From positions 3,005 through 67,004 of the forward strand of contig DATDGI010000158.1 in assembly GCA_036522155.1 (NCBI GenBank): DNA of 64,000 bases. Reading direction: 5' to 3'. Shown in pieces: positions 31,301-50,563 of this stretch (within the stretch, counting starts at the first letter, position 1; every line of letters starts with the position of its first letter). The notes below the pieces were generated by a model, which was not told the origin of the DNA, made no database searches, and saw only the letters and a program-made list of their open reading frames with translations. Source of the stretch: Streptosporangiaceae bacterium (GTDB taxonomy: Bacteria > Actinomycetota > Actinomycetes > Streptosporangiales > Streptosporangiaceae). The translations under genes and the position numbers were made by a program.

Positions 31301-31332
31301 CGCTGCTGGCCCGGGAGGCAAGCAGTACATAT

Positions 31333-31407
31333 GGTCCTGTAGAGCAGCTTGGAGTGCTCGCCACCCTGTCAAGGTGGAGGTCGCGGGTTCAAATCCCGTC
31401 AGGACCG
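31333..31407 (+). tRNA. tRNA-Asp (GUC)
   Basis: GGTCCTG acceptor, anticodon loop CTGTCAA, T-arm GCGGG-TTCAAAT-CCCGT. Confidence 0.92.
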
Positions 31408-31442
31408 CTCTGGCTCTGGCCCGGGAAGGGCGGGCCGGGCGA

Positions 31443-31519
31443 GGTCAGGTAGCTCAGTCGGTATGAGCGTCCGCCTGAAAAGCGGAAGGTCGGCGGTTCG
31501 ACCCCGCCCCTGACCACCA
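31443..31519 (+). tRNA. tRNA-Phe (GAA), CCA encoded; integration target
   Basis: GGTCAGG acceptor, anticodon loop CTGAAAA, T-arm GGCGG-TTCGACC-CCGCC. Its 3' 44-45 nt recur three times downstream. Confidence 0.92.
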
Positions 31520-31568
31520 CTTCTGAGCAGCGCAAACGCTGCTCTTGTTCTTTCTGGCCGTAGTGCCT

Positions 31569-31587
31569 TGCTAACACCTTTGCTAAC
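31569..31587 (+). repeat. Two TGCTAAC direct repeats (candidate integrase arm-type sites), tRNA-proximal arm
   Basis: TGCTAAC at 31569-31575 and 31581-31587, between the tRNA-Phe end and the int stop. Confidence 0.45.
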
Positions 31588-32762
31588 GCGCGCCGTTGAC
31601 GGCTTGGGCGAAGATGTCTCCGACGCCTGCCGCGTGCTCGCGGAGGACGTGTGAGTAGACGCGAAGTGTCACGGCCGGGTCGGCGTGGCCGAGTCGTGCG
31701 GCGACGACGTGGACCGGGACTCCTGCTAGGAGCAGTGTGGTGGCATGCAGGTGGCGCAGGTCGTGGAGCCTTGCGTGAGGTAGCCGTTCGGCTGGGGGAG
31801 TGGTCGGCTTGTTGTGCCGTCTGATCAGCTTGGTCATGAGAGCGGTCACGGTGTCGGGGTAGAGCGGTTCGCCCCACTTGGTGACGAAGACCAGGCCGCT
31901 GCTGTCGTTCCACGCTGACCCGGCGGCGAGGCGTTCTTCGGTCTGCCGGCGGCGGTGGTCACGGAGCACGGCCACGGTGTCGCGGTCGAGGCTGATCGTG
32001 CGGGACCGGCCGCCTTTGGTGGTGCCTTCGATTCTTTGGCCGCGTACGACGGCTGTTGAACCGCCGAAGGTGACCTCGGCCGCGTCGAGGTCCACGGCGT
32101 CCCACCGGAGGTAGAGAAGTTCCCCGCGCCTGGCCCCGGTGTAGGCGGCCAGGCGGTAGAAGGCGAACAGGCGGTGATTCCGCGCAGCGGTGAGGAACGT
32201 GCCGAGCTGGTGGGCGGTCCAGACCTGTATGGGCTCGGCCCGGCCGGTTCTCGGCCTCTTCGACCGGGCGGCGGGGTTGGCGGCCAGCAGTTGTTCCACG
32301 TCCACGGCGTCAGCGAGCGCCTTGCGGAGCGTGCGGTGGATATGAGAGACGGTGGTGGCTGACAAGGCCCGGCCGTCCCGGCCACCGTGCTCGGCCAGGT
32401 CGCGGTAGAGCTTGGAGACCACGGCCGGTCGCAGGGCCTTGCAGCCGCATCCGTCCGATGCGGGGCACGATGTAGTGGTCGATGTCGTGACGGTAGCCAG
32501 CGAAGGTCTTGGGCTTCACGGTTGCGGCGTGGGCCTCTAACCACTCCGTGAGGTAGTCCGCGACGGTCGATGTGGACCTGGTGACGTACTCGCCGCGCCG
32601 GGCGCGAACGCGGGCCTCATCGCGGGCGGCCTTGGCGGCTTCCTCGGTGGGGAAGCCGCCGACCCATTTGGGCTTTGTCACACCGGTAGCAGGGTCGGGA
32701 ACGCGGATCACATACGACCATGACCCGCCTCGTCTGATCACTCCGTCACGAAGCTTTGGCAT
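31583..32762 (-). pseudogene. int: Tyrosine integrase disrupted by a single-base frameshift
   Basis: N-terminal part MPKLRDGVIRRGGSWSYVIRV...HYIVPRIGRMRLQ (32310..32795 frame). C-terminal part ALRPAVVSKLYRDL...HDLRHLHATTLLLAGVPVHVVAARLGHADPAVTLRVYSHV (31583..32422 frame). The frames switch at about 32436-32442. Confidence 0.8.
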
Positions 32763-32946
32763 CGGTGGTTCCTTCCTGGTTGAGCAGGGTGGCAACGTAG
32801 GTTTCGAGCGCTTCGACGGGAACGCGGCGGGACCCGTCGATGCGGACCGAGCGCACCAGCCCGGCCGCGATCAGCTCGTAGAGCTTGCTGCGGGAGATAG
32901 CCAGGGCCTCGGCGGCCTCGGGAACGGTCAGCAACAGCCGAGTCAT
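32746..32946 (-). CDS. xis: Excisionase-family HTH DNA-binding protein
   Basis: MTRLLLTVPEAAEALAISRSKLYELIAAGLVRSVRIDGSRRVPVEAL. The ATG overlaps the rep stop (ATGA). Confidence 0.75.
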   Translation of the reverse strand: MTRLLLTVPEAAEALAISRSKLYELIAAGLVRSVRIDGSRRVPVEALETYVATLLNQEGTTDAKAS

Positions 32947-34313
32947 GCCGCACCTCCCGTCAGAGGCGGGAGCATGACTGGCGATTGGCCACATCCGGTG
33001 AAGTGCCAGTCGGCGCGAACGACCGTGGTCTCGCTGGCGAGATCTGGCAGGAGCCCGGCGGCGACGGCCAGCTCACGCTGGTACGCGGCGCGTTCGGCGC
33101 GAAGCGCACCGAGGGTGGTGGAGTAGGCGCGGCTCTTGGTGGAGAAGTGGCCGGAGAAGCCAAGCATGTGTGCCCAAGCGGCCAGGTGCAGGTCTACCAG
33201 GCCGGGGAGCTTGCTGAGCCGAATGCATTCGGCAATGTGGCGGCGAGCGTGCTCGCGGACGGGGAGCACGTCGAGCTGGTCGGCCGTGGTGATGCGGCGG
33301 TCGAGGGTGTCGGTGCATTCCGCGGCCTTGGTGGCGTACTTGGCGACGTACGCGGCGACCCTGGTCTCGGTCAGCTCACCGGTCGTGGTGATGGGCCGGA
33401 TGTCGAGTTCGCGTCCCCAGGCCAGGGTTCGCGCGGTCAGGCCGGGAGTGGCGGGAGCTTCAAGGTGGACGGTGCGGGCCGCCTGGTCGATGGCGGTAGT
33501 GAGCAGGTCGAGGGTTGCCCACGCGGGCGGGGCAGCGGCCGGACCGCCAGGGCCGTCCAGACGGATGATGGCATGGAAGTGGACGACGCCGCGCCGCTGG
33601 TATTCAGCAACCTTGGCGTAGGAGACCCGCAGTTGAGCGGCAAGCTGCTTGCCGGACAGCCCGGCCTGACGGGCGAGCGTCCTTCGGAGGGTGATGGTGA
33701 ACCGCCGCCATAGTTCGGGAGCGCAGGCGTTGAACAGGACCGCGCCCGTGTAGTCGTAGCAGTCCGGGCACAGCGGTTCACCAAGCCGGACATCGTCCCT
33801 GGCGTGTCTTTCGGGGCACGAGAGCTGGTTGCCGTGCGGGCAGGTCAGGCTGCGCCGTCGTGGTCGGCATCGCAGTGCCCGGCCTTTTTTCTCGCGTTGG
33901 ACATGAACTGGGCCGAACGATGGTGCGGTAAGCGTGACGAACACGCACGGGTGCCCGGCGACGGTTGCCGGGACGCCCTTGCCGCCGGACAGTCCGGCTC
34001 GGATGAGCTGGTAGGTGTCGGCCTGGTAGACCTCGGCGCAGGGCCGGCAGCGGGAAGCGCGGCGGGTCTTGCACGCGATGGGCAGAACCCCGCCGGGCTC
34101 GTGGACGGTGGTGTAACGGTGCAGGAGTTCCCCAGTGGCACCGTCGATGTGATCGACGCGGCCACGCAGCAGAACGGGTTGCAGGCACCCGCCAGCGCGC
34201 CGGGGCGTGCTCGCGGGGAAGGAATCGGTGGGCAAAGGCGGTACTCCTCTCGTCGCGTCCTTGCGGGCGGTGTGGACGAGCGAGGCAGACCTGTCACCAG
34301 GCGAGTGAGTCAT
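32943..34313 (-). CDS. RepSA-like replication initiator of actinomycete integrative and conjugative elements
   Basis: 456 aa. CKTRRASRCRPCAEVYQADTYQLIRAGL, VFVTLTAPSFGPVH and VVHFHAIIRLDG are typical of the pSAM2 RepSA family. Confidence 0.8.
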   Translation of the reverse strand: MTHSPGDRSASLVHTARKDATRGVPPLPTDSFPASTPRRAGGCLQPVLLRGRVDHIDGATGELLHRYTTVHEPGGVLPIACKTRRASRCRPCAEVYQADTYQLIRAGLSGGKGVPATVAGHPCVFVTLTAPSFGPVHVQREKKGRALRCRPRRRSLTCPHGNQLSCPERHARDDVRLGEPLCPDCYDYTGAVLFNACAPELWRRFTITLRRTLARQAGLSGKQLAAQLRVSYAKVAEYQRRGVVHFHAIIRLDGPGGPAAAPPAWATLDLLTTAIDQAARTVHLEAPATPGLTARTLAWGRELDIRPITTTGELTETRVAAYVAKYATKAAECTDTLDRRITTADQLDVLPVREHARRHIAECIRLSKLPGLVDLHLAAWAHMLGFSGHFSTKSRAYSTTLGALRAERAAYQRELAVAAGLLPDLASETTVVRADWHFTGCGQSPVMLPPLTGGAA

Positions 34314-34512
34314 GGGTTCGTTGATCAGCGGTGCTATGCCGCGTGGCCTGGGTCAGGTTGCCTGCCGCTCAGGGCCTTTGATGTGGCTTTGGCACCGTGA
34401 CCGGGCTCCCGGTGACTCACCGGCCCGGCGGTTCACGGTCATCCCTCGCTACCGAGGGTCGCTTGCTCCCGATTCTACCCGTATCTAGAGTCTGTTAAAC
34501 GTACTAAAAGTA

Positions 34513-35733
34513 TCAGGATCGCAAGCGGACTGCGCCGACCCGCCCGGCCAGCTCCCGCAGTTCGGCCGAGGGCGGGTCTTGCATGGCCAGCAGGTCGGAG
34601 ACGACCTGGCGCACCTGTTCATGCCCGGCCACCAATTCCCGGCTGATGTCCCCGGCCTGTCGCAGCGCCGAGACCGCCTCTGTGACCTGGCGGCGCTGGG
34701 TATGCGCGCGGGCGACATCGATCAACATCCGAGCGCGGCGCTCAGCGGACAGGCCACTGGCATCGACGGCGGCAGCGGCCCGCAGGGCGCGGCCCGCATC
34801 GCCTAGCTCGACGGCAACCGCGATCTCATGCAAGCCAACGTTCGCCGGGCCAAACTCGGTGTTGAAGTCGTTACGTCCCTCACCGAGGCGCGCAGCGGCC
34901 TGGCCAGCGTGTTCCAGGTGGGAGTAGGCAGCGCCCGGGTCGTTGATCCGGGAGCCGATGACGGCGCGCTGCAACGTCAGCCCGCCCCACAATGACATGG
35001 CCTCTGGCTCACCTTGGTCGGCCCGTGATTGCAGGGCCTCTGCGGCGGTGCGGGCGGTTTCCTCGGCCTGGTCGTAATGGTGCGCTGCGAGGAACACGTG
35101 CACCAGCCGAAAGGCACCAGCGGCCACCAGCAGCGCGTTACCTGCCCGCTCAGCGGCGGCCATCGCGCGGTCGGCGGCGATCCACGCGGCCTCGGGTTCA
35201 CCGAGCTTGGCCAGGGCAGCCGAGCACGCCTGATAGGTCGTCGCCATCAGCTCGAAGACTTCGGGCCGCTGTGCCTCCGGCAGGGCACGAGCGGCAGTCT
35301 CCAGGTCGGGCACGAGCCCGCGCAACAAGTCGGCCAGATCGGTGTACTGACCGGCATGAGTCAGGTTCCACGCCTTACGGCCCTTGGTCCGCAGTGTGCT
35401 GATTGCGGCCGGGTGGCGGCCATCGAGCATGGCCCGCAGCGCGTAGGCACCTGACAACACCAGCCGCAGCCCCGCCGTTCCGGGCGGTTCCTCGGTCACC
35501 GCGGCGACCACCGGAGCCTCTGCGGCCAGCTCGTACAACGGCACTTCCAGCGCGGTGGCGACGGTTTCCAGGACCGACATCCGGTCGATCTTCCGCACGC
35601 CACGTTCGACCTGGGACACCCACGCCACCGACCGGCCCAGCAACCGGGCCAACTCTGGCTGCGACAGCCCTCGTCGGCGCCGCTCGGCGGCGATCTTCCG
35701 GCCAAGAGCTTGCTGGTAGGACGGAGCACTCAC
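34513..35733 (-). CDS. XRE-family HTH regulator with large helical (TPR-like) C-terminal domain
   Basis: LGRKIAAERRRRGLSQPELARLLGRSVAWVSQVERGVRKI. Confidence 0.8.
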   Translation of the reverse strand: MSAPSYQQALGRKIAAERRRRGLSQPELARLLGRSVAWVSQVERGVRKIDRMSVLETVATALEVPLYELAAEAPVVAAVTEEPPGTAGLRLVLSGAYALRAMLDGRHPAAISTLRTKGRKAWNLTHAGQYTDLADLLRGLVPDLETAARALPEAQRPEVFELMATTYQACSAALAKLGEPEAAWIAADRAMAAAERAGNALLVAAGAFRLVHVFLAAHHYDQAEETARTAAEALQSRADQGEPEAMSLWGGLTLQRAVIGSRINDPGAAYSHLEHAGQAAARLGEGRNDFNTEFGPANVGLHEIAVAVELGDAGRALRAAAAVDASGLSAERRARMLIDVARAHTQRRQVTEAVSALRQAGDISRELVAGHEQVRQVVSDLLAMQDPPSAELRELAGRVGAVRLRS

Positions 35734-36038
35734 CCGCCGGTGCCCTTGCCAGTTTGGAGGGTCAGCCAGTCCACTTCGGTGCTGGCTAGGTACTGGTCTC
35801 GCTCGTCGAGGTAGCGGCGGGTGTGCCGGGCGGCCTCGTGGGCGTGGAAGGCTTCTTCGTCGCGGTACAGCTCGTAGAAGATCCGCTGCAACGGCTGCCC
35901 GTCCACCAGGTGGGAGGCATACACCAGGGTTCCCGGTTCGTGGGCCTTGATGGCTTCGATGGTCTCGGCGACCAGCCGGTCATACGCCTTGGCGCCGGTC
36001 TCGTCCTTGCACGTGAACCGCACGCACAGACCGAACAT
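35730..36038 (-). CDS. Antibiotic-biosynthesis-monooxygenase (ABM) fold protein
   Basis: MFGLCVRFTCKDETGAKAYDRLVAETIEAIKAHEPGTLVYASH...LYRDEEAFHAHE. Its stop overlaps the start of the XRE gene. Confidence 0.7.
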   Translation of the reverse strand: MFGLCVRFTCKDETGAKAYDRLVAETIEAIKAHEPGTLVYASHLVDGQPLQRIFYELYRDEEAFHAHEAARHTRRYLDERDQYLASTEVDWLTLQTGKGTGG

Positions 36039-36092
36039 GCTGCTGCCTCCCAGGTACTCGTGACGCCATGCTCGCACTCCATGTGCCGCACC

Positions 36093-36125
36093 AGTACGTC
36101 AAATCACACGTACTTATAGTACGTG
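36093..36125. promoter_or_regulatory. AGTACGT/ACGTACT half-site cluster in divergent promoter region (candidate operator)
   Basis: AGTACGT (36093-36099) and CACGTACT-TAT-AGTACGTG (36107-36125; exact 8-bp arms), between the ABM-XRE operon and the ATPase-like gene. Confidence 0.4.
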
Positions 36126-36191
36126 ACTAAGACCAAGAGTACGATCAGTCTTGATGTGAAGCCATGACCGGGCGCAACCCAGCGAGGAGCC

Positions 36192-37013
36192 ATGCAACCC
36201 ACAGCATCCGAACTACTCGCCCTGCGCGCCCGAGAGACCACCTACCCAGGCGCAGCCGAACACATCAGCAGCGTCAGAGCTGACCTCCGCCCCTTACTGC
36301 ACGACTGCCCTGTAGCAAACGACGTGATCCTCTGCGCTTCCGAGCTGGCCGCCAACGCCGCCAAACACAGCAACTCCAGCCTGCCCGGCGGCACCTTCAC
36401 CGTCCGCATCCTCATCAGCCGAGGCGACTTCGTCCGCATTGAGGTCCAGGACAACGGCGGCCCGTGGACCCCAGCCGTCGCCGATCCGACCGGACACCAC
36501 GGACTCGACATCGTTCGCGCGCTGGCTGACAAGTGGGGTACGGACGGCAACCACACCACACGAACCACCTGGGCTATCTTCAACTGGCCACGTGACCCGG
36601 AGACCGGCGGCGACCCATCGGCACCGACGAGCACGCTTATCGCACGTGAGCGCGTGAGGAGTTTCTTCACAATCATCAAGGGCGCGCTGGCGCGCGCCAG
36701 GGGTAGTGGGCAGGCCGCAGCGGACTTGACAAGGGAACCCTCGCGGCGGCCCACATCGGGCTATAGGCGGGCAGGCCAGATGCCGCCCGATCGCCGGACA
36801 GCTTACGGGCCGCCGCCCCTTGTCAAGTCCGCTGCTCCGTCCGCGCGGGGTGCCAGAAGCCGGATGGTTCAGGCGCGAGGATGCGGCGAGACGATGACGA
36901 CCAGGGCGACGGCCTCGACAGGGAATGACGGGGGACGGCCCGCGCCGGGGGCGTCGGCAGAAGCCGCGCCCTGCCGGGCGGGAGCCCTACGGGCGCGGCA
37001 AGCCGACGCCTAG
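36192..37013 (+). CDS. HATPase_c-like ATP-binding protein (anti-sigma-factor/kinase-like)
   Basis: ILCASELAANAAKHSNS...VRIEVQDNGGPW...GHHGLDIVRALADKWG within the first ~135 aa. The remaining ~135 aa are Arg/Ala/Gly/Pro-rich and overlap a long hairpin element, so the true C-terminus is doubtful. Confidence 0.6.
   Translation: MQPTASELLALRARETTYPGAAEHISSVRADLRPLLHDCPVANDVILCASELAANAAKHSNSSLPGGTFTVRILISRGDFVRIEVQDNGGPWTPAVADPTGHHGLDIVRALADKWGTDGNHTTRTTWAIFNWPRDPETGGDPSAPTSTLIARERVRSFFTIIKGALARARGSGQAAADLTREPSRRPTSGYRRAGQMPPDRRTAYGPPPLVKSAAPSARGARSRMVQARGCGETMTTRATASTGNDGGRPAPGASAEAAPCRAGALRARQADA
36717..36835. repeat. 119-bp imperfect hairpin (19-bp perfect outer stem plus 10-bp inner stem)
   Basis: GCAGCGGACTTGACAAGGG (36717-36735) pairs with CCCTTGTCAAGTCCGCTGC (36817-36835). 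GCGGCGGCCC (36743-36752) pairs with GGGCCGCCGC (36807-36816). The 54-nt loop contains a further ATCGGGC/GCCCGAT pairing. Confidence 0.8.
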
Positions 37014-37203
37014 CGGCCGTCCCCGCTTCCCCCGGCCCGCTGGTATCTCGCCGTTACGCGGCAACCGGCACCGGTCCCGCACGTAAAGCAGCGGTTGACA
37101 GTGGCCGAGCCCAAGCTGTCCGGCGCCTATCAGGCGGACGGAACAGCGTCGATCAAACCCGCTGGCTAGCGCTCCGGGGCGCCCGCCCCTCTTGACGGCA
37201 ACC

Positions 37204-37229
37204 CTATCAAAGTGATATCACTTTGATAG
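37204..37229. promoter_or_regulatory. Perfect 26-bp palindrome (candidate operator)
   Basis: CTATCAAAGTGAT|ATCACTTTGATAG. A TTGACG hexamer lies 7 bp upstream (37192-37197). The ATG of a small membrane ORF is 45 bp downstream. Confidence 0.5.
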
Positions 37230-37273
37230 GTGACCGGAGTGGCCGGACACCACAGCCGACGGGAGTCACCCCG

Positions 37274-37576
37274 ATGAACGCATCCAATGACAACACTGCT
37301 CCCAAAGGCCTGCGCGGGCGGTGGGCATCTCCCCCGCGATCCGGCATGCAACGCATAATCGCGCCATGGGAGTACCGCCACCTGCGCTTCTGGGCAGGCG
37401 TACGCATTTGCGCTGGTATCGTCTTGGCCGGCCTTGGCGCCGTTACGCTCGTGGGGGGTTCCTTCACAACGAAGGCTGTCGTGTGGGCGATGCTCTTCCT
37501 GGCGGCGGCGGCGGCAAGCTTCGCGTGGGCCGCTTGGGACCTGGCTATCGCTCGTTCCGCATCTGCCCGAACCTGA
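37274..37576 (+). CDS. Small two-TM membrane protein (hypothetical)
   Basis: ATG with GGGAG 9 nt upstream. FWAGVRICAGIVLAGLGAVTLVGG and VVWAMLFLAAAAASFAWAAW helices. No family recognised. Confidence 0.4.
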   Translation: MNASNDNTAPKGLRGRWASPPRSGMQRIIAPWEYRHLRFWAGVRICAGIVLAGLGAVTLVGGSFTTKAVVWAMLFLAAAAASFAWAAWDLAIARSASART

Positions 37577-38002
37577 GCCCTGCGCGACTCGCACTGGGCC
37601 TGGCGGGTGCTAGACGAGCTGGCTTCGGAGCCGAAGGCCAAGCGCACCCACCTGAGCGCACGCGCATCGAAGAGCAGACACCGCCCGTGCCACATCCCGT
37701 GCCAGAACCGGGCTGGCCAAAGGTCGAGCGGGCAGCAGTCTCTCGCCAGCACCCGCCAAGACCGAGTAACCAAGTGAGTAACGATGGTCGTCACCAGCGG
37801 CGGACGCCAGCGGACGCCAGTGGACGGCACTTCGCAGGTCAGACAGGCTGCTGCCCTGGCTGGCCGTCTGGCTACTTGGCTTCGGGACGAAGAAGCCGCC
37901 GGTTGAAAGCGGAAGCAGTGCAGCACCAAAGTGCAGCAACCAGACCGGCCCTGCCAGTCGGTCAATGTCATGTTCGAGCACTGACCGACTGGCCAGCCGC
38001 GA

Positions 38003-38524
38003 TCACCCGAAGCGGTTAGGGCCGGGGGTGCCTTCCATTACGGTGAGGACGAGGAGCCAGATGCCGCCGATGAACGGCACGAAGGCGATGAAATACCAGA
38101 ACCCGGACTTGTCCTGGTCGTGCAGGCGGCGGATGGTCAGCGACAGGCTCAGGAGGAACGCGGCGACGGCCGCGGCCAGGTACAGCAGGATGCCGAGGAC
38201 CGGGACGTGGACGGCCGAGAAGATGGCGGCGAGGATTAGTACGCCCACCCAGCCGATCAGTTCCGCCAGGGCGAACCACCAGTAGGCCGACCGTGACGCG
38301 CGGCCTTTGTACTCGAAGATGTTCTGGAACGCCAGCTTGATCGCGTCGGTGAAGCCGACCGGGCCGCCCTGCAGGTAACCGCGCGGGCCGTCGGCGGGCG
38401 CGTAACCTCCCTGCTGCTGCGGGTAGGGGGCGTAGCCGCCGCCCTGGGGTGGTGGGTAGCCGCCTTGCGGAGCGTTGCCGCCCTGCTGCTGACCAGGGTC
38501 GTAAGGGCTGTGGGGAGTACTCAC
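38003..38524 (-). CDS. DUF805-family membrane protein with Gly/Pro/Gln/Tyr-rich N-terminus
   Basis: YKGRASRSAYWWFAL...LSLTIRRLHDQDKSGFWYFIAFVPFIGGIWLLVL is the DUF805 signature. Confidence 0.8.
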   Translation of the reverse strand: MSTPHSPYDPGQQQGGNAPQGGYPPPQGGGYAPYPQQQGGYAPADGPRGYLQGGPVGFTDAIKLAFQNIFEYKGRASRSAYWWFALAELIGWVGVLILAAIFSAVHVPVLGILLYLAAAVAAFLLSLSLTIRRLHDQDKSGFWYFIAFVPFIGGIWLLVLTVMEGTPGPNRFG

Positions 38525-38877
38525 GTCTTACCTCAGATTCCCCGTTCGGTGTCCGATGGACAGAGCAAACTGATTCTGTAGGCGTTTGAGCTGCCCGCGC
38601 AACACAATCCTCACATTGCTGCCTTTAAAGGTGCTCAAGTGAGGTGCATTGTCATAGTTTGCAACATTTTGCTTATGGTAGGAGCTCTGACCCGTTAGTT
38701 ACCTGGCCACGGTAACACCTTGTCCGGGCTGCTGGCGCTGGCCACCCGGTTGGCCCATGACATCGTCGGTCCCGCGAGCTGATCCTCGTCATGGCGGTGA
38801 CATTCGTCTCGCTCGCATGCCGTCGACTCCCCGCCCATGGAGCGGAAGGTCATCGGTCTCCGGTTACAGAGGTCAGC

Positions 38878-38895
38878 TGCTAACGCTGTGCTAAC
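38878..38895 (+). repeat. Two TGCTAAC direct repeats (candidate arm-type sites), distal arm of the element
   Basis: TGCTAAC at 38878-38884 and 38889-38895, in the same orientation as the pair at 31569-31587. Confidence 0.45.
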
Positions 38896-39001
38896 AACGG
38901 TTGTGGACACGTGGGGTCAATCCTGGACGCCGAGATGCCCGGGCAGGTCATCTGGCCTGATCAGGTGGCCTGTGGTGGACTCACCTGCACTAGCCAAGCC
39001 T

Positions 39002-39045
39002 CCTGAAAAGCGGAAGGTCGGCGGTTCGACCCCGCCCCTGACCAC
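39002..39045 (+). repeat. att repeat 2: exact 44-bp copy of the tRNA-Phe 3' part
   Basis: CCTGAAAAGCGGAAGGTCGGCGGTTCGACCCCGCCCCTGACCAC is identical to 31474-31517 of the tRNA. Confidence 0.88.
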
Positions 39046-39228
39046 AAGTCAACTAGCAACCTGCGGTCCTTTGACCAGTGCAAACGCAGGTTGGAACTCT
39101 GGCCCGTCGAACTCGGCAGGTAACCGCTGGTGCCCGTTGGTGACCGCATTCAGCCGGGCACTGGGGCACGCGGGGGGCACGGCTGTCCACTCGATGCCAA
39201 CTGCATCGTCGGACGGGCATAGAGGCCG

Positions 39229-42822: not shown

Positions 42823-42918
42823 GTTCGATTCGTCGGAGCCACCGCCCTCTGGTAGCTCCCGTACGTAGGCCGTGGCGAGACCGCGGATCGTCTCTGCGGG
42901 CAGTGCGCCAGCCAATGC

Positions 42919-42960
42919 CCTGACCACCTTCTGACCTGCGAGGACGTGCGCGTCATGAGT
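42919..42960 (+). repeat. Truncated att-like remnant plus flank, repeated at 50238-50280
   Basis: CCCTGACCACC (the last 11 nt of tRNA-Phe) followed by TTCTGACCTGCGAGGACGTGCGCGTCATGAGT. The same ~42 bp, with 3 substitutions, follows att copy 4. Confidence 0.7.
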
Positions 42961-42980
42961 ATGACGCCGGCTACAGGAGC

Positions 42981-43829
42981 TCATGGCGTGCCGGGCTCAG
43001 CGCGGCGCTCGGCGCCGGGAGCGGGCGGGCCGCCGGCCACGGAGCCTGGATAGCAGGCGGCCGGCGGCGCGGCCTGGCCGACCGGGGGTTTCCTGGCCCG
43101 CCGCTCCCGCCAGGAATGCCAGAGCGGCGGCGCGATCATCGCGGCGACCAGCACGCAGACGGTCGCGAACGCATACCGCGAGGCCAGGTTGGCCAAAGTG
43201 ACCCCCTCGCTGCCGAGCAGATACCCGCCGGTGGCGAGCAGGGCGGTCCAGGCGGCGGAGCCGAGCGTGTCGAACAGGATGAATGGGAGCAGCGGCAGGC
43301 CCGCCCAGCCCGCTGCGGCGTAGACGGCCGTCGAGGCGCCGCTTGGCAGGAAGGCGGCCAGCGCCACCAGCGGGCCAGCGAACCGCCTGCCCCGCGTTTC
43401 GACGAAGCTCGCCAGCGCGGCCGACCGCGGACTCCGGTGGCCGAGCCGTACCACGATGCTGTGGCCCCAGAGCCGGCCCGCCCACCAGTACACCCAGTCG
43501 AATCGCATCATTCCCGGCAGCGCCGCGGCGACCACGACGGCCAGCGGGAGCTTGCTGCCCACATCGGAGAACGCGCCCGCCGCCACGATCGAGGAGTTCG
43601 ACCCCGTGAGCAGCTCGAGCAGCACCGGGTGGGTGGCGATCAGGGCCGGGGTCAGCGGGATGGTCGCCACCGCGTAGACGGCGCTCACCACGATCGCGAT
43701 GCCACAGCACACGTCACGGGCGCGCGGGCGGCCGTGCCAGGGAACCCAGCCGGCCAAACGCGCCCGGGGGCCGCTGCCCTGCGCCTGGCCCGGCGGGCTG
43801 GGCGGCTGCGGCGGGTCCAGCGCGGTCAT
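42981..43829 (-). CDS. DedA/SNARE-associated (VTT domain) membrane protein
   Basis: Multi-TM. PGMMRFDWVYWWAGRLWGHSIV and AAFLPSGASTAVYAAAGW resemble DedA family loops. Confidence 0.6.
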   Translation of the reverse strand: MTALDPPQPPSPPGQAQGSGPRARLAGWVPWHGRPRARDVCCGIAIVVSAVYAVATIPLTPALIATHPVLLELLTGSNSSIVAAGAFSDVGSKLPLAVVVAAALPGMMRFDWVYWWAGRLWGHSIVVRLGHRSPRSAALASFVETRGRRFAGPLVALAAFLPSGASTAVYAAAGWAGLPLLPFILFDTLGSAAWTALLATGGYLLGSEGVTLANLASRYAFATVCVLVAAMIAPPLWHSWRERRARKPPVGQAAPPAACYPGSVAGGPPAPGAERRAEPGTP

Positions 43830-44428
43830 GTGGCCCCTATCCAGCTTGGTGGTGACCCCAAATTAAGCGCCAGCACCACCGGCGTCGACCCCGCCGGGGA
43901 AGGCCGGCCCGGCCCGGGCCGGCCGCCCCCGCATCACGTCCAAATCCTCGGTGCTCCTCAGCCGGCCAGCCGTAGGGCTGCTGGCGATCGCGCAGCTCCA
44001 CATCGCCATCTGGCCGGCCAGCCGGCAACAGCGACCGCAGCGTCTGCCTGTCCTCGCCCACCGCCACCTCAACGGCTTATCCAGTTCGGCGGCGGCCAGC
44101 CGTCGGGCGCGCTCGATCGTCTCCGCGGCCAGCCAGATGTGGTGCCCGACCATCCTGGTCAGCAGGTCCATAGCAGTCACCTTCGCCCGGGCGGGCAGCC
44201 ACAGGCTGCCCGGCGGTAGAAGTGCACACCGTTCGGGGCGCCGAGCTGGATCTGGCGCGGTGCCGCCCGCCACGCCGCCGCCGCCACGCCGCGCGGCCGC
44301 TACCGGGACATGTCTGCGTGTCTGGTGTCATGCGTATCCGGGTCCACCCGGCAGCCGCCCGGCGTGATCGGTGCGGGGCGCCGGAAAATCCGGCAGAGAG
44401 TGCCGGGCAGTCTGGTTAGGCTCGGCGC

Positions 44429-44809
44429 ATGGCGCGCCTTTTCCACGTCAGTTCTGCCGTGAACCGGGAGTCGATCCTGGCGCACGGCCTGGACTGGACC
44501 CGGATGGGGGCCGCTCCGGGTATCGCTGGCAGCGTGGTGCCCGAGGAGCACGGCGTGTTCTTGTGCCGGGACGAGTTCGAGGCCGGCTGGTTCGTGCAGA
44601 TGAACAGCACCGGCGGCCCGGTGGATGTGTGGGCGGTCGCGGGCATTGACGAGCAGCAGCTCATCACGGCTGGCTCTGGGTTCAGGTACCTTCCCGCCCC
44701 GATCCCGCGCAGCCAGGTCACTCTGCTGGAGCGGTCACCGGACCAGCCTGCGCCTGCCCGCCGCAGGCACCACACGAACAAACAGCAGAAGCAGCCGCCA
44801 GCCCGGTAA
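44429..44809 (+). CDS. Hypothetical protein
   Basis: Only ORF length and coding-like composition support it. No family recognised. Confidence 0.3.
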   Translation: MARLFHVSSAVNRESILAHGLDWTRMGAAPGIAGSVVPEEHGVFLCRDEFEAGWFVQMNSTGGPVDVWAVAGIDEQQLITAGSGFRYLPAPIPRSQVTLLERSPDQPAPARRRHHTNKQQKQPPAR

Positions 44810-45292
44810 GAGAACCATCGCGTCAGCGGGCTGTCCCCGGGTTGCGCGCCACCTGTGGCCGCATGGCGCGTGGCGGAGACCGGGATCACCGCCCCAGGGC
44901 GCCCTGTTCTGTGCGCCTGCGCGGCCGGCCAGCCGACCGGGAGCGACGCGCAGATCGGCGGGAGTCTGCCGGAATGGGGCGCCCAGCGCCGCGGCGCCAA
45001 AGCGCCAGGCGGGTGCCTGGTGGGCAGCTGATGAGGCACAGATGGCCTTTTGGTGCGCGCGGAGGCTACGCGGCCACGACTTGATACGGTCCCGGCAGGA
45101 TGACGCGAGCGACCGTGCTTAGGCTCACGTTCGCCGGACGCATCGCAACGTGCGCGACCCGCGGCGTCCGGATGTGTTGCCCGCCTCTGAGCCGCGGGTG
45201 GTATGGCCCTGGTGGACCAGGGATCACCTGGTTCATGAAAAGCAAGTAGGTTCAGCTGTGAATGTGACCCCTAGCCACGAGGAACGCATGCC

Positions 45293-46246
45293 GTGACGCT
45301 GGCGATTCAGGCTGAGGGCCTGGTCAAGCGGTTCGGGAAGACGCTGGCAGTGGACGGCGTCGATCTGGCTGTCCGGCCGGGCATGGTGCTGGGCCTGCTG
45401 GGACCGAACGGGGCAGGGAAGACCACTGTGGTCCGGATGCTGGCCACGTTGCTGCGGCCCGATGCCGGTTACGCCCGGGTCTGTGGCGCAGACATCGTCG
45501 CCCAGGCTGCCCGGGTCCGTGAGCTTATCGGGCTGACCGGGCAGTACGCGGCGGTCGATGAGGACCTGACTGGTTTTGAGAACCTGCTGCTTATCGGGCG
45601 GCTGCTGGAGGTTCCCCGGGCGGAGGCGAAGCGGCGGTCGGTCGAGCTGCTGGAGCGGTTCGGCCTGGGCGACGCCGCCGGGCGTTCGGTCAAGACCTAT
45701 TCCGGCGGCATGCGGCGCCGGCTCGACCTGGCTGCGAGCCTGGTCCAGCGGCCTCAGGTGCTGTTCCTGGACGAGCCGACCACCGGCCTGGATCCGCGCG
45801 GCCGGGGTGAGGTGTGGGCCATGATCAGGACGCTGGTCGCCGAGGGTACGACCGTGCTGCTGACCACGCAGTACCTGGATGAGGCCGACCGGCTGGCCAG
45901 TGAGATCGCGGTCATTGACCATGGCCGGGTGATCGCGACTGGCACTCCCGCCGAGCTGAAGGCCAAAATCGGCCGGCAGACCCTCGACGTGCGCCCGGCC
46001 GATCCGGCGGACCTGACGCTGGTCGCCGGGATCGTCACGGCCGCCGTTGGCCGCGCCCCGGCCAGGACGGAGGAGGATCCGGGCCTGCTGTCGGTCCCCA
46101 TCGATGACGCCCAAGTCCTGCCGGCCGTGGTCAGCGCGCTGCAGGCCGGGCGGATCGAGGTCACCGAGCTCGCGCTGAGGCTGGCCAGCCTGGATGAGGT
46201 CTTCATGGCACTCACCGGGCTTGCGGCGGAGGAAGGCACCCGATGA
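45293..46246 (+). CDS. DrrA-family ABC transporter ATP-binding protein
   Basis: GPNGAGKTTVVRML, YSGGMRRRLDLAASL, LFLDEPTTGLDP, plus the DrrA-type C-terminal domain. Confidence 0.9.
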   Translation: MTLAIQAEGLVKRFGKTLAVDGVDLAVRPGMVLGLLGPNGAGKTTVVRMLATLLRPDAGYARVCGADIVAQAARVRELIGLTGQYAAVDEDLTGFENLLLIGRLLEVPRAEAKRRSVELLERFGLGDAAGRSVKTYSGGMRRRLDLAASLVQRPQVLFLDEPTTGLDPRGRGEVWAMIRTLVAEGTTVLLTTQYLDEADRLASEIAVIDHGRVIATGTPAELKAKIGRQTLDVRPADPADLTLVAGIVTAAVGRAPARTEEDPGLLSVPIDDAQVLPAVVSALQAGRIEVTELALRLASLDEVFMALTGLAAEEGTR

Positions 46247-47052
46247 CCGCCACAACCGCGGCCGAGCCGGGCCGGGCCCGGAGCATGACCCCGGCCCGCG
46301 CCCTGCGGCACGCGCTGACCCTGGCGTGGCGGGCACTGGTGCGGATCAGGCGCAACCCGGAACAGCTGCTCGACGTCACGCTGCAGCCGATCGTGTTCGT
46401 GACGCTGTTCGTATTCTTGTTCGGCGGCGCGATCAAGGGCGAGAGCAGGCACACCTACCTGGAGTACGTGCTGCCGGGCATCATGGTGATGACGGTGGTG
46501 TTCGCGAGCATGGGCACCGGCATCGGGCTCAACACCGACGTCACCAAGGGCATCTTCGACCGGTTCCGGAGCCTGCCCATCTCCCGCTCAGCTCCCTTGA
46601 CGGGGACGATCATGGGGGATTTCATCCGCTACCTCGTCTCGGTCGCGATGGTCTTCGCGTACGGGTCGCTGCTGGGATTCCGGATCGCCGCCAGTGCGCT
46701 GTCCGCGCTTGCTGCGGTGGGACTGATGTTCGTCTTCGGCTTCGCCGTCGGCTGGATCTGGGTGCTCCTCGGCCTGTACGTGAAGTCCCCGCAGAGCCTG
46801 CAAGGATTCGGGTTCATCGTCCTGTTCCCGCTCGCGTTCGGCAGCAACGTGTTCATCCCTGCCGCCACCCTGCCCGGCTGGCTGCAAGCCTGGGTCAAGA
46901 TCAACCCGGTGACCGCGCTGGCCAGCGCCAGTCGCGGCCTCATGCTGGGCGGACCGGCCGCCACTCCGGCCTGGCACTCCATCGCCTGGAGCATCGCGAT
47001 CACCGCCGTCTTCGCCCCGCTGGCGGTACGCCGCTACCGCCACGTCGGCTAG
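46243..47052 (+). CDS. ABC-2 (DrrB-like) permease
   Basis: Six TM helices. Start overlaps the ATPase stop (ATGA). Confidence 0.85.
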   Translation: MTATTAAEPGRARSMTPARALRHALTLAWRALVRIRRNPEQLLDVTLQPIVFVTLFVFLFGGAIKGESRHTYLEYVLPGIMVMTVVFASMGTGIGLNTDVTKGIFDRFRSLPISRSAPLTGTIMGDFIRYLVSVAMVFAYGSLLGFRIAASALSALAAVGLMFVFGFAVGWIWVLLGLYVKSPQSLQGFGFIVLFPLAFGSNVFIPAATLPGWLQAWVKINPVTALASASRGLMLGGPAATPAWHSIAWSIAITAVFAPLAVRRYRHVG

Positions 47053-47430
47053 CCGCAGCTAGCCCGGGCCGAGATCCTGATCCCGGCCGCCTGCACGCCT
47101 CCCGCGAACCCGGGGAGCAGACCAGCGATCCTGCTGTCACCGCCTTTCGGCGCGCAGAAGGTGCAGATCTCGGCTAATCAGCGTCTTGACCGGCCTCGAG
47201 AAGACAACTGCGCAGGCGGCTGCGGTGTGCGCCCGACGCCGACAGCCCATCACTGAACGCGACCACGCTGACGGCCAGCGATGTTGGGCGACGGCGCCGA
47301 GCGCCGAGTATGCGCTTTCTGTCGATGGCGCGTTTGCCGTGGCCGAGCGATATGGAACGGCCAGTTCTGGGGCCATCTCCTCTTCGGTCCACGGTTCATG
47401 AGATCGCGAGCGCTGCAGTCGTGCAGGTGG

Positions 47431-48213
47431 CTAGGTCAGGAACTCCAGCAGCAACGGGGCGAGAGCGGCTGGGCTGACATTGTGGTCCTGACCCTCCAGG
47501 GCCCGCAGCTCGCCATGCGGCATTGCCAGTTGCAGATTCCTGGCGGTCTCGGCCATGAACGGGAAGCTGGCCGTTCCGTACAGCACCAGCGCCGGGACGG
47601 ACAGCCGGGCTGCTCGCTCGAGCGGCACGGCCGCGTCCGTGCCGAGGATGGCTGTGTGGTCATAGGCGAGGGTGGGCCCCAGCGCCGCCATGGCGGGCCA
47701 GAAGTCTTGCTGACGCATGCCGTCGATCTGCTCGGCCGGGGTCCCGACGTAGGCCATGAACAGCGCCACCGCGTCACCGTGGCGGTCGGCCGCCAGCGCC
47801 TCGGTCAGCTGCTCGAGGTAGCGGCGCCACGCCTGCCGGGCGGCTGGATCGTCGTTGTAGGGCGGTTCGTACATGGCAATCCTGGTGACGCTGTCGCCTA
47901 GCTGGAGGGCCGCGTCCAGCGCGAGCGCCGCGCCGGAGGAGTGGCCGTACAGGGCTGCGGTCCCGCCGGCCACCTCGATCAGCGCCTGGATGTCATCGAT
48001 CTCCCGGTCCAGCGCGTACGGGAGGGTATCGCCGCTGTCGCCCCGCCCCCTGCGGTCATAGCCGAATACGGTTAGCTGCGGCGCGAGCAACGCGCGGAGC
48101 GCGGCCTTGCCGCCGCGGGTACTCATCGCGCCGTCGACGACGATCAGCGCGGGGCCAGAGCCCTGCTGCTCGTAGGCGATCAGGGTGCCGTCCGCCGATG
48201 TCACTGATCTCAT
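47431..48213 (-). CDS. Alpha/beta hydrolase
   Basis: MRSVTSADGTLIAYEQQGSGPALIVVDGA... and nucleophile elbow YGHSSGA. I chose the ATG at 48213. Confidence 0.85.
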   Translation of the reverse strand: MRSVTSADGTLIAYEQQGSGPALIVVDGAMSTRGGKAALRALLAPQLTVFGYDRRGRGDSGDTLPYALDREIDDIQALIEVAGGTAALYGHSSGAALALDAALQLGDSVTRIAMYEPPYNDDPAARQAWRRYLEQLTEALAADRHGDAVALFMAYVGTPAEQIDGMRQQDFWPAMAALGPTLAYDHTAILGTDAAVPLERAARLSVPALVLYGTASFPFMAETARNLQLAMPHGELRALEGQDHNVSPAALAPLLLEFLT

Positions 48214-48878
48214 CGCTCGTCTCCTTACTACATCTGCTCGCTCGGGCCTGTTCTGACCGCCTGTATATCCACGCTTGATGCGAACCAGCCGGGGCATGGC
48301 CACTGCGAGGTCCTGGTCACCGATGGGGGAACGACCAGCCGCCGCGGGAGAAGCCGCGCCGGGATCCTCACCCCACCCGCCGGGTGCATGCATGACACCT
48401 TGGGGTCAGCGAGGCATTCATGTCAGCCACGTGATCGTCTCCTTCGGTTACGCGCGGTTCTTCGCACAGTTCGGACGGCCCGGCCACGGCAGACTCATCG
48501 CACCCGTCGGCATGCCTACCACTGGCACCACCACGGGTCCCACCGGTCACCACGATCGCTGCACGGCGGCTCCCGGACCCACGCTAGAGAGGTCGTGCAC
48601 CCAGATCGACCCGCTCTGGGCGCTTCAGTCGATGGACGCCGCGCTCGCGGCGGCCGCACCGAGCGGCGGCTATTCGCGCTGGCTCATCACGGTCGGCCGG
48701 TGACGTCTGTGGCCGATGAGCGGCCAGTCCATGCGCCGGTCCGAACCGCCGGAACGGGACGTGCCGGGTTGTGGCGGCGGACTTAATGGATGCCCCAGGT
48801 CGGCGGCGTGCCAGGATGCGGACTCCAGCCGGGTGGCCCCCGGCGACCCACTGCCGGTCCTGCACGGTGATCCCTAAT

Positions 48879-48923
48879 CCTGAAAAGCGGAAGGTCGGCG
48901 GTTCGACCCCGCCCCTGACCACC
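48879..48923 (+). repeat. att repeat 3: exact 45-bp copy of the tRNA-Phe 3' part
   Basis: CCTGAAAAGCGG...CCCCTGACCACC. It is followed at 48938-48953 by CTGAGCAGCGCAAACG, which also follows the tRNA itself at 31523-31538. Confidence 0.88.
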
Positions 48924-49219
48924 GAGTCTCTGTCGCGCTGAGCAGCGCAAACGGCCGTTATGGGCTCCCGTGGTTGTTAATGGGAGGCCCGCCCAAGCCC
49001 GCTCTTGTCTGCTGGGCGCCGCACGCTATCGCACGCGGATCGCACGGCCGTGACCTCTGCTTGCAAAGATCGTTCACGCGGCGACCCGACGTGGCCTGCT
49101 GCTGGCGGGAGGCCGCTAACGCATCTCTGAGGTTGACCGCGATTGACTGCGGGTTACCTTCCGATGGGGCACGCAACAGGCACGACCAGGCCGATCAGCG
49201 CAGGAACCAGCAGGTTGGG

Positions 49220-49987
49220 TCACGCTCGATTTGGTCCGGGTCCGGCGCCGCTTAGCGCGTGCTCAACCCAGATGTTGGGTTCTACGTAGACAGCATGGTC
49301 GTGTTCCGCATCGCAGTGCACGGGGACCAGCGCCTCTGGCACGATCACGTCGCCGGTACGGTCGAATGGCAGTCCGGTCCATTCCCGCCACTGCGCGAGC
49401 GAGCCAGCCATGACCATAGATGCTGGCGCTACCTGCCTGATCTTCCCGCCGGTTCTTACGTGTACTCGTAGCCACGGGTCGGCGGGCAAGCCGTCTTCTC
49501 GCACCATCGTGATGTATTTGGCCATCGGCAGAGTCGGATACCGGTGCTTGCCGGTTGGCCGCACGGGGGCCACCAGCCGGGTTAGCCCGGCGTCCCGGGC
49601 CGCGTCACGGAGCGCGGCTAGCATCCGGTGGGACAGGCCGCTTCCCCGGTATGGCTGCCCGACCGCGATTTCCACGGCGGAGGCGGTGTCTGGCGCGCGG
49701 TCGGCAAGCCGGTCGCTGAACGCCCATATCATCGCCCAGTCGAGGCCGCCGTCTGGCAGGGCGCCCCGGCCCGGCAGGTCAAAAGTGAACGCCATCGCCC
49801 GGCCGGTGGCGGCGACCGCGCCGCTGTCATCCGTTGCCACAGCGCACAAGTGGGGAAAGGTGCCCGCGACTTGCCCGAAGAAGGCGTTCATCACCGGATC
49901 AGCTCGCATGAACTCCGGCCAGTTGGAATCAACCTCGTACACGCGGTCAATCAGATCGGGTCGCTCGCTGAGGCGATGAATTATCAT
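49220..49987 (-). CDS. GNAT-family N-acetyltransferase
   Basis: VEIAVGQPYRGSGLSHRMLAALRDAARDAGLTRLVAPVRP (acetyl-CoA-binding motif A-like). The chosen start is MIIHRLSE. Confidence 0.6.
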   Translation of the reverse strand: MIIHRLSERPDLIDRVYEVDSNWPEFMRADPVMNAFFGQVAGTFPHLCAVATDDSGAVAATGRAMAFTFDLPGRGALPDGGLDWAMIWAFSDRLADRAPDTASAVEIAVGQPYRGSGLSHRMLAALRDAARDAGLTRLVAPVRPTGKHRYPTLPMAKYITMVREDGLPADPWLRVHVRTGGKIRQVAPASMVMAGSLAQWREWTGLPFDRTGDVIVPEALVPVHCDAEHDHAVYVEPNIWVEHALSGAGPGPNRA

Positions 49988-50208
49988 GTCGGTCCTGACT
50001 CTTACCCGTATGTCCACGCGATCTTGCGGAAGGCCTATGGGCGGGTCCCGGCGAGGCTACACCAGCCCGTTCCAGATCTGGACTGCTGGCCGCGCATGGC
50101 AACGCTGCGAAGCTTCCGAAGACGATCGTGGTGAAGCACTGATGTCGCACGCAGATCGCACGAACAGGCCCGGGGCAGGGCTGACCTGCGCAGGCGCGAC
50201 CCGCTGAT

Positions 50209-50280
50209 AAGCGGAAGGTCGGCGGTTCGACCCCGCCCCTGACCACCTTCTGACCTGCGAGAACGTGCGGGTCGTGAGTG
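50209..50280 (+). repeat. att repeat 4 (39-bp exact core, diverged anticodon-loop part) plus presumed chromosomal flank
   Basis: CCGC-TGATAAGCGGAAGGTCGGCGGTTCGACCCCGCCCCTGACCACC. The loop region differs from the tRNA (CTGAAAA becomes TGATAA). The flank TTCTGACCTGCGAGAACGTGCGGGTCGTGAGT is repeated at 42930-42960. Confidence 0.8.
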
Positions 50281-50563
50281 TCTGTGCAGTGCACCCCAGG
50301 AAGGACAGCCTTCCGCCTCCGCCACCGCCCGGGAACTTGATGAGCTGCCCACCCTGGTGTCGGCGGGGCATGGGTGGGTCTCACGCGCGTGATCGGTATG
50401 GGTTTCCCGGCCTGGAACGGTTCGCGCTTTCCTGAGACGGCAAGGCAGGCGGACGCTCCCACACGGTGGTACTACCGCTGGTCAGGCACGCGGCGATCGG
50501 CGGCTGGATTGTCACCAGATTCCGGTGATGCCGTCTCACCTGCCAGGGCCTGACCATCGAGGC

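Follow-up and report, generated by a model that had tools for sequence, protein, structure and literature searches.

A likely accretion array of integrating elements at a tRNA-Phe gene in an uncultured Streptosporangiaceae bacterium

The prototype of the integrative and conjugative elements of actinomycetes (AICEs) is pSAM2 of Streptomyces ambofaciens, which targets a tRNA-Pro gene and carries traSA (FtsK-like), spd, korSA, pra and pif. In S. avermitilis, AICESav3728 and AICESav3708 are found in tandem in one tRNA-Arg gene, with a 44-bp attachment (att) site between them (te Poele et al. 2008, PMC2440964). The same review records AICE remnants as well as AICEs that use tRNA-Phe, i.e. pMEA100, pSE211 and pMR2, the first two being conjugative and RepAM/Prim-Pol based (Table 1 therein), and a replicating but non-conjugative element in tRNA-Thr, pSE101 of Saccharopolyspora erythraea, whose Rep is distinct from the RepAM of the pMEA type. 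In a Streptomyces population, AICEs and defective AICEs of different families were found accreted at one tRNA-Arg gene, with a remnant lacking traB and with the site used in common by integrases of 39-88% identity; decay was pervasive there, and cis-mobilisation was considered possible (Choufa et al. 2022, PMC9513070). Cis-mobilisable elements (CIMEs) and accretion-mobilisation of the ICESt3 type are known from streptococci through the work of Bellanger et al., as cited in PMC9513070 and PMC5704250. Here we analyze 64,000 nucleotides from a Streptosporangiaceae bacterium (contig DATDGI010000158.1 of assembly GCA_036522155.1, positions 3,005 to 67,004), hereafter called the window, in which a 19-kb stretch starting at a tRNA-Phe gene is probably an accretion array built by successive site-specific integrations at a hot spot.

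Accretion of AICEs at tRNA genes has already been described, and the window is a further instance, at tRNA-Phe. Like the Streptomyces tRNA-Arg arrays, it combines several pSAM2-like families in one tRNA gene, direct att repeats of about 44 bp, integrases of low identity sharing a site, and a remnant lacking traB. Unlike them, the site is tRNA-Phe, the host is an uncultured high-GC actinobacterium outside Streptomyces, decay is further on, with five att-derived copies and no intact integrase, and there is no population of sibling strains showing differences in occupancy. The int-xis-repSA order, an int gene that ends beside att, an initiator of the RepSA family and an att identity block reaching from the anticodon loop to the 3' end of the tRNA are all shared with pSAM2. 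The likeness to pMEA100, pSE211 and pMR2, by description, is that of the same target gene family in actinomycetes, and none of the three was among the plasmid BLAST matches of the window.

Repeats of the tRNA-Phe gene and the elements at the two ends of the array

The 44-mer CCTGAAAAGCGGAAGGTCGGCGGTTCGACCCCGCCCCTGACCAC, which makes up the 3' part of the tRNA-Phe gene, occurs exactly at 31474-31517, 39002-39045 and 48879-48922 and with two mismatches at 50203-50246, and had no match across 100 shuffles of the window. In copy 3 the identity runs one base beyond the 44-mer, to 48923. In a k-mer walk the identity of copies 2 and 3 set in at tRNA position 32, and that of copy 4, which is exact over 50209-50247, at position 38. 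The 11-mer at 42919-42929 was initially set aside as chance, as it is by itself equal to five other chance-level 11-mer matches to the tRNA in the window. This was withdrawn once a repeat finder had matched 42918-42960 to 50237-50279 with 93% identity over 43 nt, a repeat that consists of the last 11 nt of the tRNA together with the 32-nt trailer behind copy 4. Its first 33 nt agree at 32 positions, and no such pair was present in any shuffle. The tRNA-Phe repeats that a previous, sequence-only reading of the window had reported at 39002, 48879 and, in diverged form, at 50209-50247 were thus recovered on recomputation, and the remnant that it had placed at 42919-42929 is both real and longer than supposed. 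All five att-derived sequences are on the plus strand, and they delimit segments 1 (31520-39001), 2 (39046-42917), 3 (42961-48878) and 4 (48924-50202). An additional ARAGORN call, "tRNA-Pyl(CTA)" at 38959-39045, was rejected as a gene, as it is composed of att copy 2 and the adjoining arm and lacks Rfam support; Rfam found nothing in the window besides the tRNAs.

Segment 1 is occupied by an int-xis-RepSA element, here called type A, or element A for the copy in the window. It is bounded by the identical direct repeats at 31474-31517 and 39002-39045, with conserved arms just inside both ends. The 124-bp P arm (38878-39001) is conserved at 79-84% in the relatives L003, L007 and L098 (L numbers denote loci from related contigs), where the DNA immediately upstream of it is unrelated. 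Both arms hold a pair of TGCTAAC repeats, spaced 11 nt apart in the P arm and 12 nt apart in the arm on the tRNA side. Within the window this paired pattern is limited to the two arms, it is absent from the shuffles, and it is conserved at the same places in L003, L007, L008, L097 and L098, so the repeats are putative arm-type binding sites of the integrase. The int-xis-RepSA backbone, with 82-86% DNA identity, adjoins tRNA-Phe in six other contig sets, L003/L004, L007, L008, L097 and L098. With acyl-CoA dehydrogenase and PspC taken as the host core, element A has about 85-86% identity to its relatives both in L097, with a core identity of 92%, and in L003 and L098, where the core identity is 77-78%. 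Such independence of element and host divergence argues for horizontal movement of the element.

The outermost copy bears the signature of a second element, type B. The peptide LLAAHGNAAKLPKTIVVKH, directly followed by a stop codon, matches the C-terminus of the type B integrase (IntB) of L007 at 72% over 18 aa (tblastn), and about 160 nt before copy 4 are 70-75% identical to the arm in L007 and to the arm before copy 3 of L003 (blastn), the latter being preceded by the same IntB relic (24 aa, 96%). In L007 a complete AICE is found beyond tRNA-Phe, consisting of GntR, small open reading frames (ORFs), FtsK_SpoIIIE, RepSA, Xis and Int, and followed by an att copy. The integrase gene of this AICE points away from the tRNA, with its end beside that copy. 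After this type B element come a type A element and a third att copy, making L007 a two-element stack. The two integrases, IntA and IntB, have only about 29% identity. Copy 4 is accordingly the distal junction of a type B AICE of which only the right arm and the 3' end of the integrase gene are left, the int of the outermost element having been at the distal end and not beside the tRNA.

The array reading is carried by what is directly visible, i.e. the repeats, the arm homologies, the IntB relic, type A as a recurrent element and synteny that is lost at the tRNA (see below). The junctions show A-type arms at the tRNA and at copy 2, and a B-type arm with an int relic at copy 4; the arms at copy 3 and at the remnant were not assignable. 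The recombination mechanism, the order of events and the present immobility of the array are what we infer from these observations. In the proposed mechanism, the attP of tyrosine-recombinase elements related to pSAM2/RepSA would duplicate 44 nt of the tRNA, its anticodon loop through to its 3' end, often together with a trailer-like hairpin. Recombination with the tRNA gene would then rebuild the gene at the proximal junction and leave the 44-nt copy at the distal one, and later arrivals, at the rebuilt tRNA or at any att copy, would stack up. At least two element types would have taken part, namely type A (segment 1, with int reading toward the tRNA) and type B (with int reading toward the distal att), while segments 2 to 4 would be att-bounded remnants left after loss of recombination, replication and transfer genes. 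The array would now be immobile, because no intact integrase is encoded in it as assembled.

Table 1. Features of the tRNA-Phe locus, with positions in the window.
Feature	Position	Strand	Basis or remark
tRNA-Glu(TTC)	31228-31301	+	Conserved upstream partner of tRNA-Phe; ARAGORN, Rfam
tRNA-Asp(GTC)	31333-31408	+	Conserved upstream partner of tRNA-Phe; ARAGORN, Rfam
tRNA-Phe(GAA), intact	31443-31519	+	ARAGORN, Rfam (71 bits)
att identity block, 3' 44 nt of tRNA-Phe; attL of the array	31474-31517	+	Exact repeat family
Element A, P' arm	31520-31587	+	Trailer hairpin GAGCAGCGcaaaCGCTGCTC and two TGCTAAC repeats (31569, 31581)
Element A, tyrosine integrase, pseudogene as assembled	31583-32795	-	N-terminal frame 32310-32795, catalytic frame 31583-32422
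Element A, excisionase (HTH_17), 66 aa	32746-32946	-	Pfam; 91% identity to L003 Xis
Element A, RepSA rolling-circle replication initiator, full-length, 430 aa	32943-34235	-	Pfam RepSA, E 1e-156, 523 bits
Element A, XRE/HTH_31 protein	34513-35733	-	Pfam
Element A, ABM protein	35730-36038	-	Pfam
Element A, HATPase_c_2 protein	36192-36590	+	Pfam; ORF runs on to 37013
Element A, structured non-coding cassette, putative replication origin or transfer locus	36676-37122	+	
Element A, variable cargo, ORF of 254 aa with no assigned family	37207-37971	-	Weak coding signal
Element A, variable cargo, DUF805 membrane protein	38003-38524	-	Pfam, PHROGs
Element A, P arm	38878-39001	+	Opens with TGCTAAC repeats (38878, 38889), ends with GCCAAGCCT
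att copy 2, attR of element A, exact 44 nt	39002-39045	+	
Segment 2, trailer	39046-39087		Like the trailers behind both L003 att copies
Segment 2, DUF3558-like ORF in low-GC stretch	39713-40360	+	
Segment 2, IS630-family copy 1	~40356-41508	-	
Segment 2, IS630-family copy 2	41574-42823	+	Terminal inverted repeats present
Truncated att copy (last 11 nt of tRNA) with 32-nt trailer	42918-42960	+	
Segment 3, DedA/VTT protein	42981-43829	-	Pfam, NCBIfam
Segment 3, DrrA-like ABC ATPase	45293-46246	+	
Segment 3, ABC-2 permease	46243-47052	+	
Segment 3, alpha/beta hydrolase, 260 aa	47431-48213	-	
att copy 3, exact 45 nt	48879-48923	+	
Segment 4 (body 48924-50082), weak GNAT acetyltransferase ORF	49220-50017	-	Pfam Acetyltransf_1, 24 bits
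Type B AICE right-end relic	50083-50202	+	Last ~19 integrase codons (50083-50142), then P arm
att copy 4 with 32-nt trailer	50203-50279	+	2 mismatches, both in the anticodon-loop part

The tRNA-Phe site in relatives and the rival explanations

A metagenome scan anchored on the acyl-CoA dehydrogenase gave 80 loci, of which 12 had the tRNA Glu-Asp-Phe cluster (with tRNA-Asp not called in L035); the cluster is also found in L003, L007, L097 and L098. In the 12 metagenome contigs the order tRNA-Lys, acyl-CoA dehydrogenase, PspC, in some cases a major facilitator superfamily (MFS) gene, and tRNA Glu-Asp-Phe is conserved. Synteny with the window is then lost exactly at tRNA-Phe. Four of the contigs stop there, and each of the remaining eight continues with DNA of its own, without relation to that of the window. 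Pairwise comparison of the downstream flanks of the relatives, in search of a native flank, gave none that was shared. Occupants that differ from the window were identified in L003, L007, L020, L027, L035 and L098, e.g. a 1.07-kb att-bounded insert in L020 (with a trailer like that of window copy 4), another integrase in L027 and the left end of a type B element in L035. L003 and L004, two independent assemblies of one relative, have the same three-copy array. The nearest named matches of the window proteins are in metagenome-assembled genomes of Streptosporangiaceae or similar lineages.

Tandem accretion at tRNA-Phe, as proposed in the sequence-only reading, is hence well supported by the recurrent type A element, the type B relic, the stack in L007 and the end of synteny at the tRNA, and in no relative does the 19-kb region appear as conserved core sequence devoid of att-bounded indels. 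The comparison of the locus among relatives that it had called for yielded the alternative occupants but no empty site. The closest relative, L097, has only 92% core identity, and an exact-protein look-up of the MFS protein, the aldo-keto reductase and RepSA found no sibling strain on record. An MFS search of genome contigs returned only relatives of 68% and 48%, both without tRNAs. The search for an empty site via the aldo-keto reductase gene (50525-51424), the distal neighbor of the array, and via the segment 3 hydrolase gave single-gene blocks of 89-94% identity with unrelated flanks, which are uninformative on occupancy.

Several points weigh against successive integration as an account of the whole stretch. 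As no empty or partly filled site and no sibling genome was found, no segment has been seen as an indel between strains. Segments 2 and 3 lack any int, xis, rep or tra relic, and segment 3 has a host-like GC content of 0.70, equal to the window average, such that its status as a former element derives solely from the flanking att copies. The trailer common to 42918-42960 and 50237-50279 suggests a single element across segments 3 and 4, which leaves copy 3 unexplained. Moreover, the contig apparently stems from a metagenome assembly, in which identical 44-nt repeats are possible mis-join points, and the frameshift in int could be a sequencing error.

These points open the way to other explanations. 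With no empty site in any relative, stepwise integration here is indistinguishable from the arrival of the array, or part of it, as a composite unit excised via the outermost att copies in a donor, i.e. accretion followed by cis-mobilisation. Relatives do hold composite arrays of the same blocks (type A plus a type B relic in L003, type B plus type A in L007), the trailer of window copy 2 matches those behind both L003 copies, and cis-mobilisation of tandem intact and defective AICEs has been proposed (PMC9513070). The contents of segments 2 to 4, however, were found in no relative, leaving joint travel unsupported, and no intact integrase is present now, so that we regard composite arrival as unlikely. 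Slightly less likely still is that segment 3, with its DedA, DrrAB and hydrolase genes, is native chromosome. The truncated att and native-type trailer at 42918-42960 would then be the point at which the array first ended, and secondary rearrangement or duplication of a piece bearing att would have produced copies 3 and 4. Such an origin would suit its GC content, its host-like third-position GC (GC3, 0.86-0.93), its lack of mobility-gene relics and the 93% identity of the remnant's trailer to that of copy 4, which resembles the native trailer of L020. But no relative has the segment 3 genes beside tRNA-Phe, and the hydrolase orthologue has another, mutually conserved context in four contigs (hydrolase, histidine kinase/response regulator, ABC transporter), which implies relocation in the window. 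The type B relics of L003 are, furthermore, likewise flanked by core and trailer repeats, as a type B element would leave them.

The tandem could also have been created in assembly, if islands of several co-occurring strains had been joined at the att sequence, 44 nt that are identical in all. Only one contig, of 67.9 kb, is the source of window protein P0001, and the breaks of four of the 12 related contigs at tRNA-Phe show that assemblers struggle at this place. Against this, the 44-nt repeat is shorter than the final k-mers of common assemblers, the three-copy array is shared by the independent assemblies L003 and L004, L007 has a two-element array, and the junctions have arms of the expected type on each side; an artefact is thus very improbable. 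Successive integration at tRNA-Phe therefore remains our preferred reading of the 19 kb.

Less can be said about relative ages and kinship within the array. Copies 2 and 3 start at the same nucleotide, which had been taken to indicate related integrases, but a boundary in the anticodon loop, here at tRNA position 32/33, is usual for att sites of this kind, and both Int families produce it despite their low identity. The 16-mer CTGAGCAGCGCAAACG, said to follow both the tRNA and copy 3, does occur in the window only at 31523 and at 48938 (48938-48953, the trailer of copy 3). It does not, on the other hand, tie islands 1 and 3 of that reading together, nor segment 1 specifically to segment 4, as it sits in a hairpin-like trailer, variants of which, AG[C/T]GCAAACG or CAGGCAA..GCCTG, are found behind nearly all tRNA-Phe genes and att copies, both in the window and in relatives. 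Either these elements bring a diverged tRNA trailer with their attP, or the trailers have a common ancestor. The 32-nt trailer of copy 4 is probably the native tRNA-Phe trailer, and a similar one follows both the tRNA-Phe gene and the att copy of L020. The divergence of copy 4 had been read as age; both changed bases are, however, the leftmost ones, which in a distal junction derived from attP may never have matched the tRNA. Position is likewise only weak evidence of age, since integration is possible at any att copy and tandems can move together. That segment 1 is near-intact and segments 2 to 4 are gutted is better evidence for segment 1 as the most recent arrival than its position is.

The type A element and its non-coding cassette

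The gene content listed in the sequence-only reading, i.e. insertion sequence (IS) elements, exporter, hydrolase, DedA and GNAT, was found as described, and so were int, xis and rep, except that a 1-nt frameshift divides int, which is intact in relatives, over two frames. DNA alignment with L003, L007 and L008 located an extra G at 32437/32438. Arm-DNA-bind_4 and SAM_3 are found in one frame and Phage_integrase in the other, and the intact 389-aa Int of L003 matches the two frames with 93% and 86% identity (tblastn). The motifs expected around the catalytic residues are readable in this alignment. RepSA is 91% identical to P0002/L003. The XRE, ABM and HATPase proteins behind RepSA form a trio that is also present in L003, L007, L008, L009 and L097, but not in L098. 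The HATPase_c_2 ORF (36192-37013) has 273 aa in the window compared to 134-136 aa in relatives, and the extension, which reads into the structured cassette described below, is probably non-coding. A cousin of type A was found next to tRNA-Thr(CGT) in L009 (7626-12897), with an RepSA of 82% identity, ABM and HTH_31 fused, and an Int of 417 aa.

An integrase with an excisionase, RepSA and tRNA-derived direct repeats, all AICE features, are present in type A, while the FtsK/SpoIIIE translocase is absent. No ORF in 31520-39001 matched PF01580 (FtsK/SpoIIIE) in Pfam, the FtsK_SpoIIIE protein of L007 had no tblastn match in the window, and no transfer gene of this type was called in the type A elements of L003, L007, L009, L097 and L098. 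Type A thereby lacks one defining AICE feature and is better named a non-conjugative integrating replicon than a full AICE. It differs from pSAM2 in its site, tRNA-Phe instead of tRNA-Pro, and in having no traSA, spd, korSA, pra or pif in any of seven contexts. By description it is closer to pSE101, in that it integrates, presumably replicates and has no conjugation function, with the L009 cousin in tRNA-Thr. Plasmid BLAST of segment 1 and of segments 2-3 gave only the IS630 copies and distant RepSA genes, and searches of IMG/VR, by IntA and by the att core, turned up a single relative, at 59%, and no exact att match.

Between the HATPase gene and the variable cargo, element A has a structured non-coding cassette of 450 bp, with a perfect 19-bp inverted repeat (36717-36735 / 36817-36835) that contains CTTGACA, and with a second, nested hairpin. 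As single-stranded DNA it is much more foldable than shuffled sequence, with a z-score of -4.7. The cassette is 83-92% identical among the window, L007 (20367-20812), L035 (1232-1618) and L003 (7394-7558), and the window copy is 83-87% identical to the type B segments of L007 and L035. Its orientation relative to rep is equal in both element types, whose RepSA proteins are only 47% identical. The type A element of L003 has the first hairpin only, and in the second hairpin L035 has what looks like one compensatory change. The CTTGACA resembles the pC194-type nick motif CTTGAT (PMC2440964). Candidate roles for the cassette are an exchangeable origin (single-strand or double-strand, sso/dso) or a transfer locus.

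The combination of features also raises a more speculative idea, namely that type A is not a decayed AICE but a distinct RepSA integrative lineage devoid of transfer genes, which rides on co-resident type B AICEs. It is suggested by the common tRNA-Phe att site, by the stacking with a complete type B AICE in L007 and by a cassette shared at 83-87% despite the low RepSA identity; we put it forward only tentatively, as the chances are rather against it. If it is true, the cassette would be a shared cis site (an origin or clt-like), through which type A would be mobilised in cis after accretion or in trans, and type A would be to actinobacteria what integrative mobilisable elements are to Firmicutes.

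Remnant segments, neighborhood and meaning of the array

Segments 2 to 4 fit the description of CIME-like remnants, being att-flanked and without recombination, replication or transfer genes. Pfam, NCBIfam and PHROGs found no integrase, excisionase, replication or transfer gene among their ORFs of at least 80 aa, and tblastn with the type A and type B proteins found no int, xis, rep or tra relic in them except the 18-aa IntB relic. ORFs without a Pfam match gave nothing useful in NCBIfam and PHROGs. As far as CIMEs are described in the citing papers, the likeness lies in att-flanked cargo, without recombination or transfer modules, beside an element that uses the same att. The streptococcal CIME/ICESt3 systems differ in element class and phylum, and here the neighboring integrase is frameshifted. 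One trailer is common to copy 4 and the remnant at 42918, as it is to the L003 copies that flank its type B relic, and the simplest reading is that one type B element once spanned segments 3 and 4. Alternatively, the two segments would be separate elements; copy 3 is preceded by ~20 nt that are similar to the arm of the copy in L020.

Outside its IS elements, segment 2 has a GC content of 0.60. Both IS630-family copies have DDE_3 and HTH_32 domains in Pfam, each split over two ORFs, and share 79-81% nucleotide identity with plasmid-borne genes of Streptomyces and Rhodococcus that are annotated as IS630 family transposases (BLAST). Terminal inverted repeats, of about 24 bp, were found for the second copy only. 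The two copies (40356-42823) differ from each other and stand back to back, 65 bp apart; one continuous match of 79% to the Streptomyces plasmid NZ_CP109481 covers both. In segment 3, the DedA-like ORF (42981-43829) and the ORF upstream of it (43863-44273), both on the minus strand, are in the same frame, 33 nt apart and with a continuous codon-position GC signal, and they may be one gene broken by a stop codon. The codon-position GC of segment 4 agrees with the minus-strand GNAT ORF.

Three blocks holding one gene each, i.e. the aldo-keto reductase (50477-51442), the hydrolase (47294-48263) and DUF805 (37899-38645), are 92-94% identical to other soil contigs, with sharp edges of homology and unrelated flanks. 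Across the contigs compared for the hydrolase block, whose flanks are unrelated, identity was 89-92%. The DUF805 block has 92.8% identity to L098, a relative with a core of only 77% identity, and is situated inside element A in the window but outside the attR of the element in L098.

Upstream of the array, integrase genes are found just downstream of tRNA-Lys in L011 (3711-4049), L023 (4305-5015) and L032 (3514-3930), and tRNA-Lys is thus a second integration hot spot in the clade; the window has no tRNA-Lys att repeat. Between tRNA-Lys (25991-26065, minus strand) and the acyl-CoA dehydrogenase gene, the window has a 1.97-kb insert of low GC content (26066-28034, 0.60), holding a 432-aa ORF (26497-27795, minus strand) with no match in Pfam, NCBIfam or PHROGs. 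In L097 and many other relatives the distance between the two genes is 70-250 bp. Many relatives have the MFS gene between PspC and tRNA-Glu (29607-30959); L003 lacks it, and in the closest relative, L097, it has shrunk to a trace of 75 nt.

While the array leaves the understanding of the integration mechanism unchanged, it supplies exact island boundaries for annotating the contig, and it warns that att position and att divergence are unreliable clocks. It also defines an apparently transfer-less int-xis-RepSA family, together with its arms and candidate integrase-binding repeats. For the organisms concerned, tRNA-Phe emerges as a hot spot across a clade of uncultured relatives, and the window provides a well-resolved example of how the tRNA genes of soil actinobacteria become layered graveyards of integrating elements.

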